This document shows positions 21,422-32,949 of a stretch of 64,000 nt of DNA, in pieces (within the stretch, counting starts at the first letter, position 1; each line of letters starts with the position of its first letter). The notes under the pieces are model-generated. The model saw only the letters and a list, made by a program, of their open reading frames with translations. It ran no database searches and was not told where the DNA came from. This DNA comes from an uncultured virus (IMG/VR IMGVR_UViG_3300031963_000026) (taxonomy: Duplodnaviria; Heunggongvirae; Uroviricota; Caudoviricetes): IMG/VR virus record IMGVR_UViG_3300031963_000026, positions 1 to 64,000 of that record. One strand, 5' to 3'. A program made the translations under genes and the position numbers.

Positions 21422-22159
21422 TTAATTAGATAAAGGTGCTTTAATGGTTGGGTGTGATTGATAACCTTCTACTTGAAATTCTCCTATCTCCATACTCTTA
21501 ATCCATCCATCAATTGTTTGGTATTCGTGATTCCAAAACTCGTCATTGATAATTAGTTTAGGTAACGGGTAAGGTTCTCTACCAATCTGTTCCTTAGCTT
21601 GTTCAATGTGGTTACTGTAAAGGTGGACATCACCTAAGTTACCAATCAATTCATCAGGTACCATATTAACTTCTTTAGCAATGATTTCAAGTAGTAAACC
21701 ATAAGAAGCAATGTTGAATGGTAAACCTAAGAATGTATCTACTGAACGTTGATTCCACATTAAAGAGATTGCTCTGGTTGGAATGTTTCTAGTAGCTAAT
21801 TTAGCATCTTCAAAACCAGCTGGTTTACCTATACCTCCCATATATTCATTAACATATATTTGAATTCTCTCATCTCTACTCAACTCTCTTGTATAAACTT
21901 GAAATCCATAATGACAAGGTGGAAGAACCATATTCGGTAAATCGTGTACTGCCCATGCCGATACAATCAACCTACGTGAATTTGGATTATCTTTTAGTTG
22001 CTTAATCAATTCAGATATTTGGTCAATACCCTTATTACCAAACTCATCATTAAATTCTTTGTCGGTTTTTAATTTTTGTAAGAACTCTTCTTTTGTGAAA
22101 GGAGTCCCATCTTCGTGTGTATGTTTACTCTGCATAATTCCAGTTTTTAAATTTTTCAC
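21422..22159 (-). CDS. thyA: Thymidylate synthase, C-terminal (catalytic) part
   Basis: IDQI, NSRR, LPPCH, QRSVD, GLPFNIASY, DVHLYSNH. Confidence 0.93.
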   Translation of the reverse strand: MKNLKTGIMQSKHTHEDGTPFTKEEFLQKLKTDKEFNDEFGNKGIDQISELIKQLKDNPNSRRLIVSAWAVHDLPNMVLPPCHYGFQVYTRELSRDERIQIYVNEYMGGIGKPAGFEDAKLATRNIPTRAISLMWNQRSVDTFLGLPFNIASYGLLLEIIAKEVNMVPDELIGNLGDVHLYSNHIEQAKEQIGREPYPLPKLIINDEFWNHEYQTIDGWIKSMEIGEFQVEGYQSHPTIKAPLSN

Positions 22160-22838
22160 TCTTGCTTTTTATTCTATCACTAACCATATCCCACTTAACA
22201 CCTAATTGATTTGACGCATGGCTAATACTCTCATACCATACACCACCAATAATACAAGGTCTTTTGTGAACTGACACATCACTTAGTTTTTTTCTAGTTT
22301 CATTACTTATTTCACGTCCTTTTAATTTATCTCTAACTTCCTGACGTTTCATACCGTTATTAGACTTTATTTTATCTTTAGTTTCTTCAGAGTGAAACCA
22401 ACCACCATTTTCTTTTCTAGTGTTAACCATTTTATCAATAACTTCTTGTGGCCGTTTTCTACCTTTAAGTGTTTCACTTGTTTTTCTTTTATGTTCTTCA
22501 CTTAATTTAACACCTTTTTTCTTTTCACTTATTAATTTTATTACTTCTATTTTAATAGATTCATAAACTCTAGAACTAGGGATATATCTACTTTGTCTCT
22601 TACTTTTCATATTACACATTGCCCATAACGCAAACTTTAACTTATTATTATTGGGATAGATTCGTACTAGTAATCTGTGACATACAAAATGCTCTCTAGC
22701 AGTTAAACTCACTAAGTTTTCTTTATCGTCCGAACCACCCATACATCTTGGTATTATATGGTGTTTTTCTGTATAACATTCCAATATTCTATTATTCGCC
22801 CTCACCACTATTTGGTTGTATATTTTTTCGTAGTTCAT
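22125..22838 (-). CDS. HNH homing endonuclease with NUMOD3-like repeats
   Basis: EKHHIIPRCMGGSD..NLV.LTAREHF..H; HSEETKDKI repeats. Confidence 0.88.
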   Translation of the reverse strand: MNYEKIYNQIVVRANNRILECYTEKHHIIPRCMGGSDDKENLVSLTAREHFVCHRLLVRIYPNNNKLKFALWAMCNMKSKRQSRYIPSSRVYESIKIEVIKLISEKKKGVKLSEEHKRKTSETLKGRKRPQEVIDKMVNTRKENGGWFHSEETKDKIKSNNGMKRQEVRDKLKGREISNETRKKLSDVSVHKRPCIIGGVWYESISHASNQLGVKWDMVSDRIKSKSEKFKNWNYAE

Positions 22839-22959
22839 AGTATTTCTCCATTGTTTTTTTATTTATTACTTCTTTGTTACGATGGTAATACTCTTTAGCC
22901 CAAGCTCGTTGTGCTTCAATTTTTTCTTGTTCTGTTTTGTATTTTTTTAATCGTCCCAT
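22792..22959 (-). CDS. Small basic protein preceding the HNH gene (not in ORF track)
   Basis: MGRLKKYKTEQEKIEAQRAWAKEYYHRNKE..., 55 aa; TATTTAT upstream. Confidence 0.65.
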   Translation of the reverse strand: MGRLKKYKTEQEKIEAQRAWAKEYYHRNKEVINKKTMEKYYELRKNIQPNSGEGE

Positions 22960-23005
22960 TTATAATAAATATATAACTAAAAGAAAAAAACTAAAAGAAT
23001 TGTAA

Positions 23006-23515
23006 TTATTTTTTAACTTTTTTCAAATAATCTTCGTAAAGTTTGTCATCTGATTTACCACCCCAATTACGCCAACCAGCCCCATACACGGGCCCTAATT
23101 CACCCCACGTCTTTGCAAACTCATCATCTGTTTTAATTTTGTTGATGAAATCCTCCTTGTTTGTAATAGCATAACCCGCAATGGTTGTATCATCCATAAA
23201 CTTTTCTAAAGTTTTTTTCTGATAATTTGCCCATGTATCACCATCCCAAATATGACAATCATTATCTACAAGGTATTTGATATTAGTCGAGCCAGAAAGA
23301 AACCAAAGTAGTTCCGTTACTATTTGTTTCCAAGCCATCTTCTTTGTGGTGAGTAATGGAAACCCATCTGACATCTTATGACGAATCTGTCTTCCGAATA
23401 CTGAGATGGTTCCTGTACCTGTTCGGTCTTTCTTTTCTACTCCATTGTCAAGAATGTCTTGGAGTAGGTTTTGGTAGTCTGTGTCTAGTTTATTCATATT
23501 ATAATTTTTTATCAT
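23006..23515 (-). CDS. thyA: Thymidylate synthase, N-terminal part
   Basis: [31 protein letters not shown]. Confidence 0.93.
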
Positions 23516-26564: not shown

Positions 26565-26954
26565 TTAGTGATGATGTTTAATAAAACCATTTATATACCC
26601 CTTGATGTTGTACGCACCCGCAGGATTCATACTATGAACAATAAAGTCACACATCTTCAGATCATTATCAATCATATAATCAACCAACCATTTGGCACAA
26701 TCATACCCCGTCTTTTCCTTGAAGGTCTCATACTTCTCATTGTATGTTCCATTATACATTGAAGGATCGTAGTGTTCGTCAGCCAAATCGTGATCAAAGG
26801 ATATTAAATCCGGTAACCCATTTGTTTTAATGTAATCCACAAACTCATCGTAATTACGGACCACAACCCAATCATTATCAGCATAAACACGCTGCGGCAT
26901 ATAAACCATACAATCCAACGGATTTCTTACATCATCCAAAAATAACTTTTTCAT
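26565..26954 (-). CDS. Cyclic-phosphate-processing receiver-like domain protein
   Basis: LFLDDVR, ISFDHDL, KTGYDCAKWL, VHSMNP. Confidence 0.75.
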   Translation of the reverse strand: MKKLFLDDVRNPLDCMVYMPQRVYADNDWVVVRNYDEFVDYIKTNGLPDLISFDHDLADEHYDPSMYNGTYNEKYETFKEKTGYDCAKWLVDYMIDNDLKMCDFIVHSMNPAGAYNIKGYINGFIKHHH

Positions 26955-26964
26955 ATCTTTTTTT

Positions 26965-27315
26965 TTATTTATGTTCTACTTCACAGTTCCATTGACTAGC
27001 AACAAACATCAAATTCATACCAAATACCCTATTTAAGTCCTTATCCCAAAACACCTCAGCATCGAATCCTCCTGTACTCACCGTGTAATTACCTTTAATT
27101 CTAATTGATCCTGATGTTGCATCAACAAGTAACCCATATGCACATTCAACCATTTTATCAATACTCGGAACACCTCGAGTTGATGACCACCACCAATCCA
27201 ATGCTTGCATCGTGATCTTAACTCGGTGAAAATCAAAATAACCTAAAGTCTCACTAATCTTTTGTTTGATATTATCATCAAAAGATTCAAAGGTCTCAAT
27301 AGTTTTACTGTTCAT
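26965..27315 (-). CDS. Hypothetical protein, paralogue of 25292..25612
   Basis: Shared motifs; promoter directly upstream. Confidence 0.75.
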   Translation of the reverse strand: MNSKTIETFESFDDNIKQKISETLGYFDFHRVKITMQALDWWWSSTRGVPSIDKMVECAYGLLVDATSGSIRIKGNYTVSTGGFDAEVFWDKDLNRVFGMNLMFVASQWNCEVEHK

Positions 27316-27319
27316 ACCA

Positions 27320-27350
27320 CAAAGATAAAGATAAAAAAGTAAAATCCAAA
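27320..27350 (-). promoter_or_regulatory. Bacteroidota-type promoter TTTG-N19-TATCTTTG
   Basis: Consensus match. Confidence 0.65.
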
Positions 27351-27414: not shown

Positions 27415-27693
27415 TCAAACCAACAAAGAAGATTCTAACATGGTATAAACATCAATAACATATTTACCGTTACAATACGGAATTAACGATCCGTGATGTG
27501 GAAAATAATCTTGAACCACAGATTTTGATCCTTCAACAATATGAACTTCAAATGTGTCTTTGAAATTACCGTATAATTTATCAGACCCTCCGACAACTAT
27601 TAAAGACTTCTTACCAAACTCTTTTTTAAAAATCCTACCACCTTCAAAAACCGGATGATCGGTTGATTCTGCAATTATTTGTCCTATAGTCAT
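27415..27693 (-). CDS. Hypothetical protein
   Basis: ORF. Confidence 0.7.
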   Translation of the reverse strand: MTIGQIIAESTDHPVFEGGRIFKKEFGKKSLIVVGGSDKLYGNFKDTFEVHIVEGSKSVVQDYFPHHGSLIPYCNGKYVIDVYTMLESSLLV

Positions 27694-27782
27694 TGTTTGT
27701 TTTTTTTATTCTCCTCTAAAATATGAATTAAACCTATGATCGCCAAAACATAAATAACCAACTTTAATATCGTTCTCATAAA

Positions 27783-28061
27783 TTATCTAGTTTCAAGAGC
27801 CTCAATCTTAGATTTTACAATATCTGTCATTTCAACAATTTCCTCCACTTTTGATGAAATAATACACTCCTTAAGTATGTTGTAAGGAATATTCAAGAAG
27901 AAATCGTACCCATTGAAAAATCTAAGGTCCGAACATTCCACAAAACAACCATTAATCATTTTAAGAAACAGCTTGAATTGTGTTCCATCAACAAATCTTT
28001 CGTCCAAAATAACACCCAACTCAAGGTGTTGGACTTTAACTCTACTAACCATCTTAATCAT
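27783..28061 (-). CDS. Hypothetical protein
   Basis: ORF; TATCTTTG box upstream. Confidence 0.7.
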   Translation of the reverse strand: MIKMVSRVKVQHLELGVILDERFVDGTQFKLFLKMINGCFVECSDLRFFNGYDFFLNIPYNILKECIISSKVEEIVEMTDIVKSKIEALETR

Positions 28062-28088
28062 ACAACAAAGATAAGTATAGAAATTTAA

Positions 28089-29058
28089 TTATCCAACTAT
28101 TTCAAAATTTTTTGATTTTTCTTTTGTCACATCAAAATCTCTTAACGATCCACCCGCATTTAATTTCACATAATGTCTTATGGCATCATCCAAATTTGTA
28201 AATTGGTTTTCCTTACTAATATCTTTAATTAAAAATTTAACAGCAATTTCTGAGGCAATCTTAGGATCATTAACCAAATCAGGATTAGATACCAAATCTT
28301 TACCAATCAAATTACCATATTTGGAATAATTACCTTTACCTGTTAATTGGTTCAACCCTCTACCCCTATACATCCAACCATCATCACCACCTTGATTCCC
28401 CGCAACCTTTGAATAAACCACCTTAAAGAATTCCTTTGGATTGTTTTTTAATTTGGATAATTGATCATCCGATAAATGTTTAACTCGTTTTCCAAAAATA
28501 TTCCTAAGTTTAGAGTTAGATGTTTTACTATATGGATTTTCCGATTGCGGAATAAATCCCGATTCCTTATCAATCGTTGATAGTATCGCCACTTGGGCAT
28601 AAGGATTGGTCAAACCAACTTTAGTCATCTCATCAATCATACTATTAACAACACTACCCTTCGACCCCGAATAATTGTGTTTAATTTTTCCTTTTAATTT
28701 TGGTACATCAGTTTTTACCTCTTCTTTATTTGACGTATCAATTGGTGATCCAGGCTTTTCTTGCAAAATACTATTAAAAAATTCATCAGTGATTTCACCA
28801 TTAACCTTCAACCCTTTTGCTTTTTGGTATTGTTCAATAAAGTTCTTCATTTCCGAATCGTACTTACCATTCAACTTAACACCCGATATACCAAAATCTT
28901 TAAGTAACTTTTGAATTGCGGTCACTTTAAACCCTTTGTCACCTAATTTTGGATATTCTTTTTTATCCTTCATTGCTTTAATACCGCTAAGAATTTTTCC
29001 CTGCACAAAATCATCCAAACCCAAAAGCTCAATAAATTGTTCAACTAATATTTTCATA
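28089..29058 (-). CDS. Peptidoglycan-binding domain plus glycoside hydrolase family 19 (lysin)
   Basis: LGDKG..V.AIQKLL...YQKAKGLKVNG; KESGF; YRGRGLNQLTGKGNY; start approximate (MKILVEQ). Confidence 0.85.
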
Positions 29059-29088
29059 AAAACTTTTAATATAAATACCTTATTAAAC

Positions 29089-29117
29089 AAAAAAACCCAT
29101 CACAATCGTGATAGGTT
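29089..29117 (-). terminator. Rho-independent terminator of the large ncRNA
   Basis: Minus strand AACCUAUCAC-GAUU-GUGAUGGGUU followed by a U-run. Confidence 0.75.
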
Positions 29118-29119
29118 AT

Positions 29120-29945
29120 ATTGGCTAACGCTGAGACTAAACGTTTTGGTTGGTTGCCTTTGGAGGGATTATCCGAGGTTTGGTTCCCCAATCTTGTCCA
29201 CATATGTTGCCATACGTATCAACCAGTGTCGGTAACTATCGGTTACCACTCGTTTCGTTGTGACTTACTCCACACTTACTTATGTCTGTTCAATCTTGCT
29301 AGACTGACTAAAGGATGGCCGTCCTACCAGCACTTTCGTTATGAAACCTAACAGACTTGCGGTCTGATTAAGTTCTTGGTTGACGCAAGGTCCCAAGAAT
29401 TAGACACCTTTCATCACAACGCCCGAAGGCTTTCGCTTCATCTTGTTTTTAGTTCAAATACAAATTGAGTAGCCGTGAGTTTTGAAGGACGTGCTTCGGG
29501 AGAAGTTTCATATCTTTTGGACACAAAATGCTTCACGACCTTCTGTAAGTCTGCAAACCTACGGTTCATAAGGATTACGTTGTTTCACAACTCGGAAACC
29601 CTTCAGAACTGGTGCCAAGCCCTACTTCCAATTGCAGTCGGAGTCGAACCTTCACCTTCAACTTTTCCTATTGGTGTCACCACCTCAACCTCGAGTCTCA
29701 CTTCTCGAGATGAATAGATTCTCTCAGCGGTTGCCCCCGAGATTCCATCCGTAGTTGATTTGCTTAGTTGTCAAATCTTATGATCTGCGAGACTGTCGGT
29801 TGCTAAACCATAAAGTCCCATTTAGTCCCGTCACCGGGGTTATCTAATGACGCTAAGCCGCCAATACCGTCGACCTAATTCCTTGAGAGGGGAAATGGTC
29901 TTTTTCAAAGAACGTTGTCGGTTTTGAGTATTATCCGACGTTTTG
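29120..29945 (-). ncRNA. Large structured ncRNA of about 800 nt (GOLLD-like candidate)
   Basis: No credible ORF; higher GC than flanks; many GNRA/UUCG-capped hairpins; promoter and terminator. Confidence 0.7.
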
Positions 29946-29950
29946 GACTA

Positions 29951-29982
29951 CAAAGTTAGAACAACTTTTTCGTTCTGTCAAG
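29951..29982 (-). promoter_or_regulatory. Promoter CTTG-N20-TAACTTTG driving the ncRNA
   Basis: Bacteroidota -7 box TAnnTTTG. Confidence 0.65.
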
Positions 29983-30076
29983 TCTTTTTTTGAAATTTTT
30001 TTGGGGTAATTTTTATAAATATACCCTAAATCTCAAAAATCTCACTCAACACTACAAAATTACAAACTTTTTTTCA

Positions 30077-30535
30077 TTATGTCAAGATATTTTTGAAAAT
30101 TTCTTCATTTTCTTTGAAACAAGTATAATGATTGTGGTATGCAAGATGTCTAGCCTCAACTTCCAAGGGGTGTTGTTCATACCCATACACCTTTAATAAC
30201 TTCTCATATTTTGTCGCCACAGGTTGCATAGAATGAACATACTCGTGAATGATCGTTTGTATCAAATCACCCAACGTTTTGTGCATAGTATAGTTGATAC
30301 CAATGATATTATCTTCGTGATCATACCAACCAAATGTTGTCTTACCATCAGGTCCTTTACTACCTTTAATACAGAAGTGTGATATTGGTGATTTTCTACG
30401 TCTATTCACACCCATATTAGTTTTACACCACCCAATAACAACATCGGCAATCTTTTCAGTTCTTTTCCTACCGATTCTCTTAACTGAAGTACTAATATTT
30501 GTAACCATATCACAAAGATAATTACAAAATTTCAT
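30077..30535 (-). CDS. Zinc metallopeptidase-like protein
   Basis: IHEYVHSMQ...HPLEVEAR. Confidence 0.7.
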   Translation of the reverse strand: MKFCNYLCDMVTNISTSVKRIGRKRTEKIADVVIGWCKTNMGVNRRRKSPISHFCIKGSKGPDGKTTFGWYDHEDNIIGINYTMHKTLGDLIQTIIHEYVHSMQPVATKYEKLLKVYGYEQHPLEVEARHLAYHNHYTCFKENEEIFKNILT

Positions 30536-30697
30536 ACTTCAAAAGTGTTAATGTCGTTTTTTTCAAAAAACCAACAAAATATCACCTAACAACACCATAA
30601 GAACAAAAAAACACCATATTATACACTAAAACGAAAAGTTAATGATATCTTAATAACACACCGAAAAATTCATTTTATACAAATCCTTTTTTATTTA

Positions 30698-31276
30698 TTG
30701 TTATGGATAAACACTTTTCTACTAAACAATTTAATTATGAAAACACTTTTTACACTACTATTTTCGTTTGTTTTTATTTCAATTTCTGTCGCAAAATCAC
30801 ACAAAAACTATGGAACAATAAAATCTCAAAAACTCTACGAATGTATTGAAAAATACTCAGAAGAGTTGGGTGTTCCCAAACACATCGCTTATAACATAGC
30901 AAGACTTGAAACCGGTTACAAAGGACCAACCCACAAAAACTACAACCCACACAGAAGATCAAGATGTGGGGCTGTCGGTCCAATGCAAATCATACCACGT
31001 TACGCAAAAAAACTCGAGAAGAATTTAAGTAACAAAATCTTAATGTATAATATTGAAACGAATGTTAGAATTTCGTTGAAGATGTTAAAGAAACATTACA
31101 ACAGGTACCATTCTTGGGAAAAGGCAGTCGCTTGTTACCATAAAGGTAATCCAAGACCTAACAAATATTCAAGATATGTTACAACAAATTACAACTACCA
31201 TCGTAAATGGGATCGGTCCTATAGGAATGATTACCCAAAGTGTGATACGACAGATATAATTTACGCAAACAGATGA
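30698..31276 (+). CDS. Lytic transglycosylase (SLT domain) with signal peptide
   Basis: ARLETG, GAVGPMQI, AVACYHKG; hydrophobic N-terminus (likely start 30737). Confidence 0.85.
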   Translation: MLWINTFLLNNLIMKTLFTLLFSFVFISISVAKSHKNYGTIKSQKLYECIEKYSEELGVPKHIAYNIARLETGYKGPTHKNYNPHRRSRCGAVGPMQIIPRYAKKLEKNLSNKILMYNIETNVRISLKMLKKHYNRYHSWEKAVACYHKGNPRPNKYSRYVTTNYNYHRKWDRSYRNDYPKCDTTDIIYANR

Positions 31277-31280
31277 AAAT

Positions 31281-31312
31281 AAAAATGGGGGTCATTGACC
31301 CCCATTTCTTTT
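31281..31312. terminator. Bidirectional terminator
   Basis: AAATGGGGGTCA-T-TGACCCCCATTT between convergent genes. Confidence 0.75.
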
Positions 31313-31901
31313 ATACAATATCCTTTGACTCAATCAAAGTATATGTAAATGAATTACCGTGTTTATCTCGGGACTTCCTAATGATTTCCATAAAGGAATC
31401 AAAATCCGCCGATCTTTTGAATACTTGGCAACCTTCCGACCAATTTTCTACGTATGTTGAATCAACACCCGCTTTATGAATGTTAATACCGAAAACACCT
31501 TCTTGGATTTTGTTCTCGTCGTGTTGCATATCTTTATCAGCATCACGATATACTTTCACATTCTTAGCTTGTCTCAACGCTTCATACTTACCTTGGTGTA
31601 ATCCGATTATGTGAGAACTTCTATACTGTCCTTCAACCAATCTTGCAACACCTGCAGCGTTATGATACTCCAACATCGCTTTCTTACCGGGATCGGTTGT
31701 GATCGTCCATTCATGATACTTCCATTGACCACCAACTTTATAAGATAGTGTAATAGTATCATCAAACGCATTCGTTACTTTATCACCTGTTGCTGAATTT
31801 CTTACTCCTACAATATTAACATCATAGTCGGTATCAGAATCAAACCACTTATAACCTTTTGTCTCAACCGCTTTTTGGATTTTCTCTCTACTGTAAGCCA
31901 T
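31311..31901 (-). CDS. L,D-transpeptidase(YkuD)-like peptidoglycan enzyme, putative endolysin
   Basis: GINIH...WSEGCQV His/Cys motif; adjacent holin-like gene. Confidence 0.55.
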   Translation of the reverse strand: MAYSREKIQKAVETKGYKWFDSDTDYDVNIVGVRNSATGDKVTNAFDDTITLSYKVGGQWKYHEWTITTDPGKKAMLEYHNAAGVARLVEGQYRSSHIIGLHQGKYEALRQAKNVKVYRDADKDMQHDENKIQEGVFGINIHKAGVDSTYVENWSEGCQVFKRSADFDSFMEIIRKSRDKHGNSFTYTLIESKDIV

Positions 31902-32155
31902 TATCCTTCAGTCTCCTCATCTTTTTTAGGTTTTTTAGGTGCTGCGAAGTTATCCAATGATGTTCCGAACAAACATGCAATAGTAACATACTCGACCGCA
32001 CTTACCAACTCAGCCGATGGTTTAATTTCTTCGTGAGTAAATGAATTAGCTATCATTGTTCCAGCAAGTGCAAGGAAACCAATGAAAGCGATTACTCTCT
32101 TTGAGCTCACATCTCCCGATGCGGAACTCAACATTGATTTGAAAAATTTTTTCAT
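31901..32155 (-). CDS. Holin-like two-TM protein
   Basis: SSKR followed by two TM helices and a charged tail. Confidence 0.55.
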   Translation of the reverse strand: MKKFFKSMLSSASGDVSSKRVIAFIGFLALAGTMIANSFTHEEIKPSAELVSAVEYVTIACLFGTSLDNFAAPKKPKKDEETEG

Positions 32156-32189: not shown

Positions 32190-32579
32190 TCAAATTCTAC
32201 TCAAAAAATCAATAAAGGATTGTGTCATCGGTGTCGGTAAATCATCCAAATCAAAGAACCCACATTCAGTATGTTCAAACCCATCTTGAGCCATGTCCAA
32301 ATCAATATCAATCATCTCATCGGACTCATATAAGAACATATGAATTACCTTTGTTACCTTACCTTTTATTATAATTCTACCAATATAATTAAAATCACCT
32401 TGCAGTTCATAACCTGTTTCCTCATAAAACTCTCTCATCGCACCTTCGGGCGGTGATTCGTAATCCTCAACATGCCCTGATGGAATAGACCAATAACCAC
32501 CAAGTGTTTGATCCATCGCCCTTTTACACAAAAGAATTTCATTTCCAACTTTATATACAATTCCTGCAATTTCTTCCAT
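32190..32579 (-). CDS. NUDIX hydrolase
   Basis: PSGHVEDYESPPEGAMREFYEETG Nudix box. Confidence 0.88.
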   Translation of the reverse strand: MEEIAGIVYKVGNEILLCKRAMDQTLGGYWSIPSGHVEDYESPPEGAMREFYEETGYELQGDFNYIGRIIIKGKVTKVIHMFLYESDEMIDIDLDMAQDGFEHTECGFFDLDDLPTPMTQSFIDFLSRI

Positions 32580-32589
32580 ATTTATAAGT

Positions 32590-32949
32590 ATGTTATATCC
32601 AGTTAAAATAAGAATAAATGACCAAGTTTTCAAATGTGAAGTTAGACACACTAAAAGTGACTTGGAAAAAGGTATGATGGGAAGAACATTTCCCGATACT
32701 AATTATAGTATGTTGTTTATTATGCCAACATCAGAAAGACAAAGTTTTTGGATGAAAAACTGTGTTCAACCATTAGATATACTTTTTATATCGGGTGTTA
32801 AAATTACAACAATACATAAGAATTGTCCTCCTTGTGATGAAGAACCTTGTGAAACTTATGAAGGTTACGGTGGTTTTGTGTTAGAATTAAACGGTGGTGC
32901 CTGTGATATGTACGGAATAAACGAAGGTGATAGAATTGAGATTATTTAA
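32590..32949 (+). CDS. DUF192 family protein
   Basis: GMMGR, MLF, FWMKNC..PLDILF, VLELNGG. Confidence 0.82.
   Translation: MLYPVKIRINDQVFKCEVRHTKSDLEKGMMGRTFPDTNYSMLFIMPTSERQSFWMKNCVQPLDILFISGVKITTIHKNCPPCDEEPCETYEGYGGFVLELNGGACDMYGINEGDRIEII

Follow-up and report, generated by a model that had tools for sequence, protein, structure and literature searches.

GOLLD RNAs are among the largest non-coding RNAs of bacteria and phages, and they form RNA-only cages that are larger than the ribosome. One member, env-38, was resolved by cryo-electron microscopy as a 14-mer cage (Kretsch et al. 2025, PMC12286853), the construct being 833 nucleotides (nt) long and its contact tables being printed in the supplement. 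In the parts of the literature covered, the Rfam model of the family is described as limited to the universally conserved 3' region, the 5' region being less conserved (PMC12286853), and GOLLD is reported to lie often near a transfer RNA (tRNA) or to contain one, an association that is frequent and not obligatory (PMC12286853, PMC12990946). Here, we describe a stand-alone GOLLD gene of an uncultured freshwater phage, located on the minus strand of the first 64,000 nt of IMG/VR record IMGVR_UViG_3300031963_000026 (129,362 bases, CheckV completeness 43%), the stretch referred to below as the window. The element is a GOLLD RNA and no new class of RNA; what is new here is a family member with a short 5' domain, which represents a tRNA-free subtype. 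An added observation is that the leaders of this clade appear, judging from their sequence, to copy the boxA of the ribosomal RNA (rRNA) operons of the host phylum.

The original prediction, made from the letters alone, had proposed a GOLLD-type or new large non-coding RNA and had named a covariance-model search of Rfam families as a check. That search returned GOLLD (RF02032) on the minus strand, matching model positions 1-416 of 416 without truncation at 277.3 bits, compared with a gathering score of 150 (E = 4.5e-78). A search of the whole contig agreed, and RF02032 was the sole Rfam family over threshold within the 64-kilobase (kb) window. A permissive Rfam scan of 28900-30200 gave a second-best family at E = 1.4, and RNase P, introns, ROOL and OLE were rejected, none of them matching below that value in this interval; for ROOL, there was no match at the gathering threshold in the window and none at E up to 10 in 28900-30200. 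That the element is a large RNA of a new class, with no more than a likeness to GOLLD, could be argued from the 5' half, which lies outside every Rfam model and is ~100 nt shorter than in env-38, but we consider it extremely improbable, given a full-length RF02032 match at almost twice the gathering score and a 5' domain that starts in register with env-38-like loci and the env-38 construct itself. A variable 5' region moreover belongs to the family description in the covered parts of both GOLLD papers (PMC12286853, PMC12990946).

The predicted gap in coding was confirmed, since 29091-30076 (986 nt) is the longest stretch of the window without an open reading frame (ORF) of at least 100 amino acids (aa) on either strand; with the cut-off set at 80 aa, the gap is interrupted by spurious plus-strand ORFs of 76-99 aa. 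The raised GC content was likewise found, with 45.4% in the element (29128-29862) against 32.2% in the window and 32-35% in the flanks. The 863-nt transcript has a computed folding energy of -262.3 kcal/mol (z = -3.6), which none of 20 shuffled sequences equalled. Phage context is provided by the IMG/VR virus record itself and by neighbouring genes for a GH19-type lysin, an SLT transglycosylase and a NUDIX hydrolase, and a blastn search of 50,697 phage records with the element as query gave no match.

Relatives of the element were collected from viral contigs in two scans. The first, which used a 3'-domain motif, gave 36 loci, one of which (L002) was a chance match; all 35 remaining loci share the 5' half of the window's element, 33 of them at 66-71% identity over ~320 nt and two (L016 and L022) at 100%. 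The second, broader scan gave 103 loci, of which 80 had enough upstream sequence and 61 were unique, forming 23 clusters at 85% identity; 17 cluster representatives with the window's type of 5' domain make up alignment A1. RNAalifold placed 193 pairs on A1, 96 of them with compensatory double changes, and 100 of the 193 fall in the 3' half, many again with double changes. Covariation among homologues had been named as a further check, and for the 5' domain alone the alignment supports 17 helices made up of 87 pairs, 97.6% of the cells being paired. Double changes occur in 47 of these 87 pairs, compared with 26.0 +/- 2.3 in shuffled alignments (47 was reached in 0 of 500) and with 9-17 pairs when the registers were slid, and each of the 17 helices contains at least one covarying pair. 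The 5' domain is thus conserved and covarying across relatives. The same substitutions bear on the idea that one of the 43-99-aa ORFs is a real gene: plus-strand ORFs of 99, 76 and 80 aa and minus-strand ORFs of 43-45 aa do overlap the region, but the substitutions are paired across helices, 96 of the 193 consensus pairs showing double changes, and indels of 1-20 nt are scattered through A1. Paired substitutions together with scattered indels do not agree with a conserved reading frame, and on this alignment evidence a protein-coding origin has a negligible chance of being correct.

Six hairpins had been singled out in the original prediction, and five of them are family-consensus helices with compensatory changes (CCCG-GUGA-CGGG, GGUG-GUGA-CACC, GUUGU-GAAA-CAAC, GAC-CGCAA-GUC and a GCAA-capped hairpin near 29207). 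The sixth, GCC-UUCG-GGC (29430-29421), does not stand as described: local pairing is possible, but its 3' part belongs to a long-range helix both in the consensus and in the Rfam model. A T-loop-like string had also been noted, and GGUUCGACUCC is indeed present at 29650-29640, but it pairs as the 5' side of a conserved helix (A1 columns 235-240 with 264-269), in which pair 240:264 is C-G in 13 of 17 sequences and U-A in 4 of 17; written as GGUUCGAC, the T-loop-like string is one strand of helix 12 of A1. With ARAGORN also negative, the tRNA or T-loop reading was rejected. A further long-range helix suggested by RNAalifold (A1 columns 29-35 with 777-783) was not adopted, being almost invariant and, by eye, non-complementary in env-38. 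The clade motif was also scanned in 185,579 species genomes without any genuine GOLLD being found, and candidate prophage copies were rejected, as the four genome-contig loci L038-L041, like L002, are chance matches in which Rfam detects no GOLLD.

As had been predicted, the gene is bracketed by a promoter-like site and a terminator of its own on the minus strand. The -7 element TAACTTTG is of the TAnnTTTG type, characteristic of Bacteroidota promoters; it follows TTGACA after a 17-nt spacer, and the TTG of that hexamer was taken as the Bacteroidota -33 element. Transcription would start near 29946 (29944-29947). Downstream, a 10-bp stem-loop (29117-29094) is followed by a U run, and a hairpin with a T run occurs at the same place in 10 of the 11 lineages shown, L037 lacking it; the stem of most relatives reads CCUCAG...CUGAGG, unlike that of the window. 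TAnnTTTG lies no more than 130 nt upstream of the leader box described below in 21 of 22 lineages, and the composite motif TTG-N17-22-TAnnTTTG precedes that box in 18 of 22. Across the contig, the composite motif occurs 27 times on the coding strand compared with 16.1 +/- 3.5 in simulations (10 against 11.5 on the other strand), and it is also found directly upstream of other gene starts. A megablast search with 20 kb around the element gave a single 52-nt match, to the thymidylate synthase of Flavobacterium phages. Together, the composite-promoter enrichment, the rRNA-type box and this match point to a host that probably belongs to the Bacteroidota.

Two side observations concern these promoters. 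A second promoter-like site, TTGACA-N17-TAATTTTG, overlaps the stop codon of ORF 30077-30535 and is listed by the composite-motif scan; it may represent a tandem promoter as in rRNA operons, or may lie outside the unit. None of the RNA contigs from the four runs described below reaches this site, and uncovered sequence proves nothing. The start codons of two ORFs, 26965-27315 and 27783-28061, follow only 5 nt after the ends of composite motifs at 27320 and 28066 on the minus strand, a spacing that suggests leaderless or nearly leaderless phage mRNAs.

Fourteen sequencing runs of DNA and six of metatranscriptomes, the latter from five studies, contain the stretch. Of the words sampled from a 1051-nt query, 69-79% are present in the six RNA runs, and the RNA itself takes up about this share of the query. 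Four of the RNA runs, from four studies, were mapped as contigs on 27500-31500, and in all four a single mismatch-free contig spans the element, in keeping with a transcript. The 3' ends of these contigs (29129-29148) are no more than 20 nt away from the Rfam boundary (29128), and three of the 5' ends (29848-29857) lie near the start of the RNA body, ~50 nt downstream of the leader box, which hints weakly at removal of the leader. No RNA contig was found on 27500-29107 or 30046-31500, but uncovered sequence proves nothing, so this is no sign of silent flanks. Against expression it can be said that an RNA library can contain DNA and that contigs show neither strand, true ends nor level, and the contigs could on that account derive from contaminating phage DNA. 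However, we consider this very unlikely, because each of the four runs from four studies yielded a single contig confined to the element and ending close to 29128, three of the 5' ends fall within 10 nt of one another, and the fraction of words held in the six RNA runs (0.69-0.79) equals the share of the RNA in the query. We regard the region as an expressed GOLLD gene with a probability of about 0.9. Three more short contigs of the X15 run agree with the window over no more than the best-conserved 35-45 nt of the 5' domain (29644-29699), beyond which they diverge; this RNA sample apparently contains other GOLLD variants as well.

The names boxA and boxB stand for transcribed leader elements with consensus sequences in Escherichia coli and phage lambda. 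A boxA-like word near the 5' end of the element had been noted earlier, and this call, GUUCUUUGAA at 29913-29904 on the minus strand, survives comparison with rRNA leaders. In the window, the promoter is followed by a hairpin (29939-29917), the box (29915-29900), a second hairpin and the body. The box lies 37 nt past the -7 motif in sense orientation, within RNA contig X15, and is essentially unpaired in computed folds. Among 23 GOLLD lineages, including four env-38-like ones, 22 carry a GTTCTT[TA] box upstream of the body, and the exception (L257) has apparent coding sequence at that place. Most of them read GTTCTTTGAA; the variants retain the GTTCTT core and end in TAAA, ACAC, TATA, TGAT, TTAT, TTAC and AAAA. 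In 14 of the 22 lineages, no more than 6 nt separate the box from the end of a hairpin (free energy no higher than -4), the fold overlapping promoter DNA in L189 and L194; the leader hairpins are singly weak relative to shuffled sequences, that of the window being equalled by 7 of 100. An 'AACCCC' box is also kept in the leaders of most relatives. One lineage (L187:344-563, plus strand, a cluster of four sequences) has a sigma-70-type TTGACA-N17-TATACT in place of TAnnTTTG, with the box 22 nt before the body and an apparent tRNA 3' end further upstream; it may belong to a phage of another host group that keeps the same box.

For comparison, 116 metagenome loci were sampled whose 16S 5' end is of the Bacteroidota type, of which 72 are distinct and have a leader of at least 300 nt. 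The exact 10-mer GTTCTTTGAA occurs in sense orientation at -60 to -260 from the 16S in 32 of 72 leaders, and the relaxed form G[TA]TCTTTGA[AC] in 43 of 72 over the same interval. By contrast, each of three controls gave 0 of 72: the exact 10-mer in sense orientation at -260 to -460, the 10-mer in antisense orientation, and the reversed motif. In many of the rRNA leaders TAnnTTTG precedes a hairpin, which in turn precedes the box, and the window's 14-mer ACGTTCTTTGAAAA is also found in rRNA leaders L073 and L100. In a second phylum, the word G-N-TC[TC]TTGAAAAC follows the sigma-70 promoters of rRNA operons in seven of eight genomes; having sigma-70 promoters and a Firmicute-like 16S start, these serve as a second-phylum example only and are evidently not Bacteroidota. 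Word and position together probably correspond to boxA, the NusB-S10 loading site of rrn operons and phage lambda, and the box variant CGUUCUUACAC of L203/L229 resembles the lambda nut boxA. Among the papers covered, a literature search found none linking GOLLD with boxA or antitermination, and in the covered part of a 2026 GOLLD review antitermination occurs only within a reference title on the T-box system (PMC12990946).

That the GOLLD leader carries a copy of the host phylum's rRNA boxA, and is transcribed in rRNA-like fashion with Nus-factor antitermination, is in our estimate an even bet. The main rival is that the word is no Nus site and acts instead as a start-site or processing signal, being part of the initially transcribed promoter region, a signal for leader processing, or a pairing partner within the RNA; its likeness to rRNA leaders would then reflect a common promoter or processing grammar without antitermination. 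This deserves serious weight, though slightly less than even odds. In L189, L192 and L194, the box begins as little as 5-7 nt past the -7 motif, where transcription is predicted to start; its tail varies among lineages, and the three RNA contigs that begin ~50 nt past it give the hint of leader removal mentioned above. However, the word occupies the boxA position of rRNA leaders in a single orientation (32/72 against 0/72 in the three controls), and the distance from promoter to box ranges over 5-66 nt, which argues against a promoter element. As to pairing, no conserved complementary partner was found, and a 5'-3' closing stem in the window (GGUAUUGG with CCAAUAUAACC) was rejected as absent from relatives.

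Under antitermination, the course of events would be as follows. Transcription would start near 29946 and yield a leader with a hairpin and then the copy of the host phylum's rRNA-leader boxA, which would load NusB-S10 and other Nus factors onto RNA polymerase. The Nus complex would shield the long untranslated RNA from Rho termination and aid its folding during transcription, and the leader may afterwards be trimmed off. The wider proposal, that GOLLD genes mimic host rRNA operons, with a host-type promoter and a boxA leader, absent from all constructs studied to date, recruiting an antitermination and chaperone complex for co-transcriptional folding and trimming, and that the product is a cage other than the 14-mer, is offered tentatively, as falling somewhat short of an even chance.

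The fate of the RNA body was considered by analogy with env-38, whose sequence and contact tables, within the covered part of the source, were compared with A1 by eye only. Both RNAs have the same order of 5' domain, poorly conserved linker and 3' domain, the latter matching the same family model, and both 5' domains open with GGCGG...GNRA-hairpin...UAAAG. In the window, the linker J13/15 (~29440-29482) shows a conservation of 0.39-0.41 compared with 0.7-0.9 on either side, is variable in length and has no consensus pairs. Key nucleotides are kept in the loops of contacts B6, B7, B8, B9 and B10. For B6, the AAA of loop L14 is invariant (17/17). For B7, the J13/15 dinucleotide is GC (GA in env-38) and the L20 loop CGCAA presents GC (UC in env-38), amounting to a compensated intermolecular pair. 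For B8, loop L21a reads GGCC in 14 sequences and UGCA, GGCU and CGCA in one each, so that it is a 4-nt palindrome in 15 of 17 and has a self-complementary GC centre in all 17. For B9 and B10, GC and CAA are kept in L21b and in the GCAA-capped 3' hairpin. By this analogy, and as in the two GOLLD RNAs with a cryo-EM structure, the ~735-nt body would probably fold as a 5' 'cap' and a 3' 'ring', and copies of it would close into an RNA-only cage; given a 5' domain ~100 nt below the length in env-38, that cage may comprise a number of subunits other than 14. Four sampled lineages (L193, L241, L242 and L256) have env-38-type 5' domains; from body start to the GAAAGG box they span 533-561 nt (L193, L241 and L256), compared with 446-466 nt in the window's type, which aligns with them at the start and is ~90-100 nt shorter.

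Several further observations weigh against this account of an expressed, cage-forming GOLLD gene with a boxA leader. ARAGORN finds no tRNA in the window or in the whole 129-kb contig, and none lies within 1.5 kb of the GOLLD motif in the 36 loci. Protein searches with the lysin and the NUDIX hydrolase gave no host signal, the identities being no higher than 37% and the matches belonging to phages of many hosts. The boxA-like 10-mer is not enriched window-wide (19 matches with at most one mismatch against 11.6 +/- 3.8, a number reached by 6 of 100 shuffles), and 29 of the 72 rRNA leaders lack even the relaxed motif. Because the GOLLD lineages were gathered by two motif-based scans and are all related to one another, common descent alone could preserve the leader word. 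The 5' domain of env-38 measures 420 nt and that of the window 319 nt, two inserted blocks being absent, and the B2 'daisy-chain' hairpin of env-38 has a larger loop where the window has a GNRA tetraloop; the cage geometry of env-38 is therefore not simply transferable.

Table 1. Positions of the GOLLD gene, its RNA contigs and associated features (window coordinates unless a locus is named)
Feature	Position	Strand	Remarks
Second promoter-like site TTGACA-N17-TAATTTTG	30055-30085	-	104 nt upstream of GOLLD promoter
Upstream promoter element TTGACA	29976-29981	-	TTG 20 nt before TA of -7 motif
-7 promoter element TAACTTTG, TAnnTTTG type	29951-29958	-	sequence reading
Leader hairpin, GUCGG/CCGAC, 13-nt loop	29917-29939	-	boxB position, just upstream of box
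rrn-type boxA-like element ACGUUCUUUGAAAAAG, core GUUCUUUGAA	29900-29915	-	lineage conservation and rRNA-leader match
Remaining leader: second hairpin GACC...GGUC, C-rich box UUUCCCC	29863-29899	-	folds, relatives
GOLLD 5' domain, short subtype	29544-29862	-	319 nt; similarity to viral loci and covariation
GOLLD 3' domain (RF02032 model)	29128-29543	-	277.3 bits; includes poorly conserved linker
Intrinsic terminator	29087-29117	-	10-bp stem, 4-nt loop, U run
RNA contig X15	29129-29928		includes box
RNA contig X16	29137-29857		runs into sequencing adapter
RNA contig X18	29131-29850		
RNA contig X19	29148-29848		
NUDIX genes in relatives	L004:1626-2054, L006:2514-2930, L023:48-461, L008:1-378, L005:2648-3025, L037:1530-1904		

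The gene directly downstream of GOLLD (28089-29054) encodes a PG_binding_1 and GH19-type lysin, whose best phage matches are annotated as baseplate, tail and tape-measure proteins. Cell-wall enzymes surround GOLLD over 28089-32155, comprising this lysin, an SLT transglycosylase upstream (30698-31276, plus strand) and an 84-aa membrane protein (31901-32155). A conserved linkage of GOLLD and lysin was rejected, as other lineages do not show it. Upstream of GOLLD and on the same strand, six of 10 other lineage representatives have a NUDIX hydrolase gene; the copy in the window is at 32190-32651 on the minus strand, and the proteins of the relatives are 38-44% identical to it. In those six loci, a conserved ORF of 77-81 aa (motif GIGEHP) stands between NUDIX and GOLLD; the window is without it and has ~2 kb of other genes inserted there. 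The association of NUDIX and GOLLD may reflect a functional link, perhaps a hydrolase acting on the RNA 5' end or cap, or inherited gene order.

Farther downstream, ~2 kb from GOLLD and on the same strand, 26565-26954 encodes a 129-aa protein with the Pfam domain cREC_REC ('cyclic-phosphate processing receiver domain', E = 2.2e-23), which is unusual for a phage. At 21422-23515 on the minus strand, thymidylate synthase is apparently split, by eye, into an N-terminal portion (23006-23515) and a C-terminal one (21422-22159), between which lies an HNH-like, endonuclease-looking ORF (22125-22838), as in td-type intron or homing-endonuclease insertions; Rfam at its gathering threshold detects no group I intron at this site.

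These findings describe a clade of freshwater and marine phage GOLLD genes that form independent, tRNA-free transcription units with Bacteroidota-type promoters, and the contigs from environmental RNA libraries place GOLLD RNA in natural samples. A leader word identical to the rRNA boxA of the host phylum offers a testable account of how an untranslated RNA of more than 700 nt could be made and folded, and suggests that in-vitro work has omitted a natural part of the GOLLD transcript. The short-5'-domain subtype, in turn, provides a means to test how 5'-domain architecture sets cage stoichiometry.

Compared with known systems, the element is closest to env-38, with which it also shares a phage context. 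The env-38 GOLLD lies downstream of a Met-tRNA (PMC12286853, in the part covered), whereas no tRNA lies near the window's element. The env-38 construct starts at the equivalent of window position 29862 (GGCGGCUUAGCGUC compared with GGCCGCCUAUGGUCGUC), so the 80-odd nt from the promoter to 29862 are a leader outside the solved RNA; the solved construct is without a leader, whereas the window's gene has its own promoter and a boxA-like leader.

The GOLLD of Streptococcus agalactiae, in the covered part of its description, partly lacks P7 and P10 and wholly lacks P9, P11a-c and P21b, assembles unlike the env-38 14-mer, and has its change in stoichiometry ascribed to such differences (PMC12990946). 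That case shows stoichiometry following 5'-domain architecture. The window's RNA likewise has a reduced 5' domain, but unlike the S. agalactiae RNA, in which P21b is absent, it retains both L21a and L21b within a full Rfam model. ROOL is also a large, ornate, phage-associated and cage-forming RNA, described as an 8-mer in the source as covered, but its sequence and fold are unrelated to GOLLD. As for the leader, the closest counterpart is that of rrn operons, which is read by an antitermination complex of NusB-S10, NusA and NusG; for GOLLD, neither a boxC nor a leader-trailer processing stem was found. The two are alike in the order of promoter, hairpin and box, in a box that is the 10-mer of 32 of 72 Bacteroidota-type 16S leaders and is single-stranded in folds, and in a product that is long, untranslated and highly structured.

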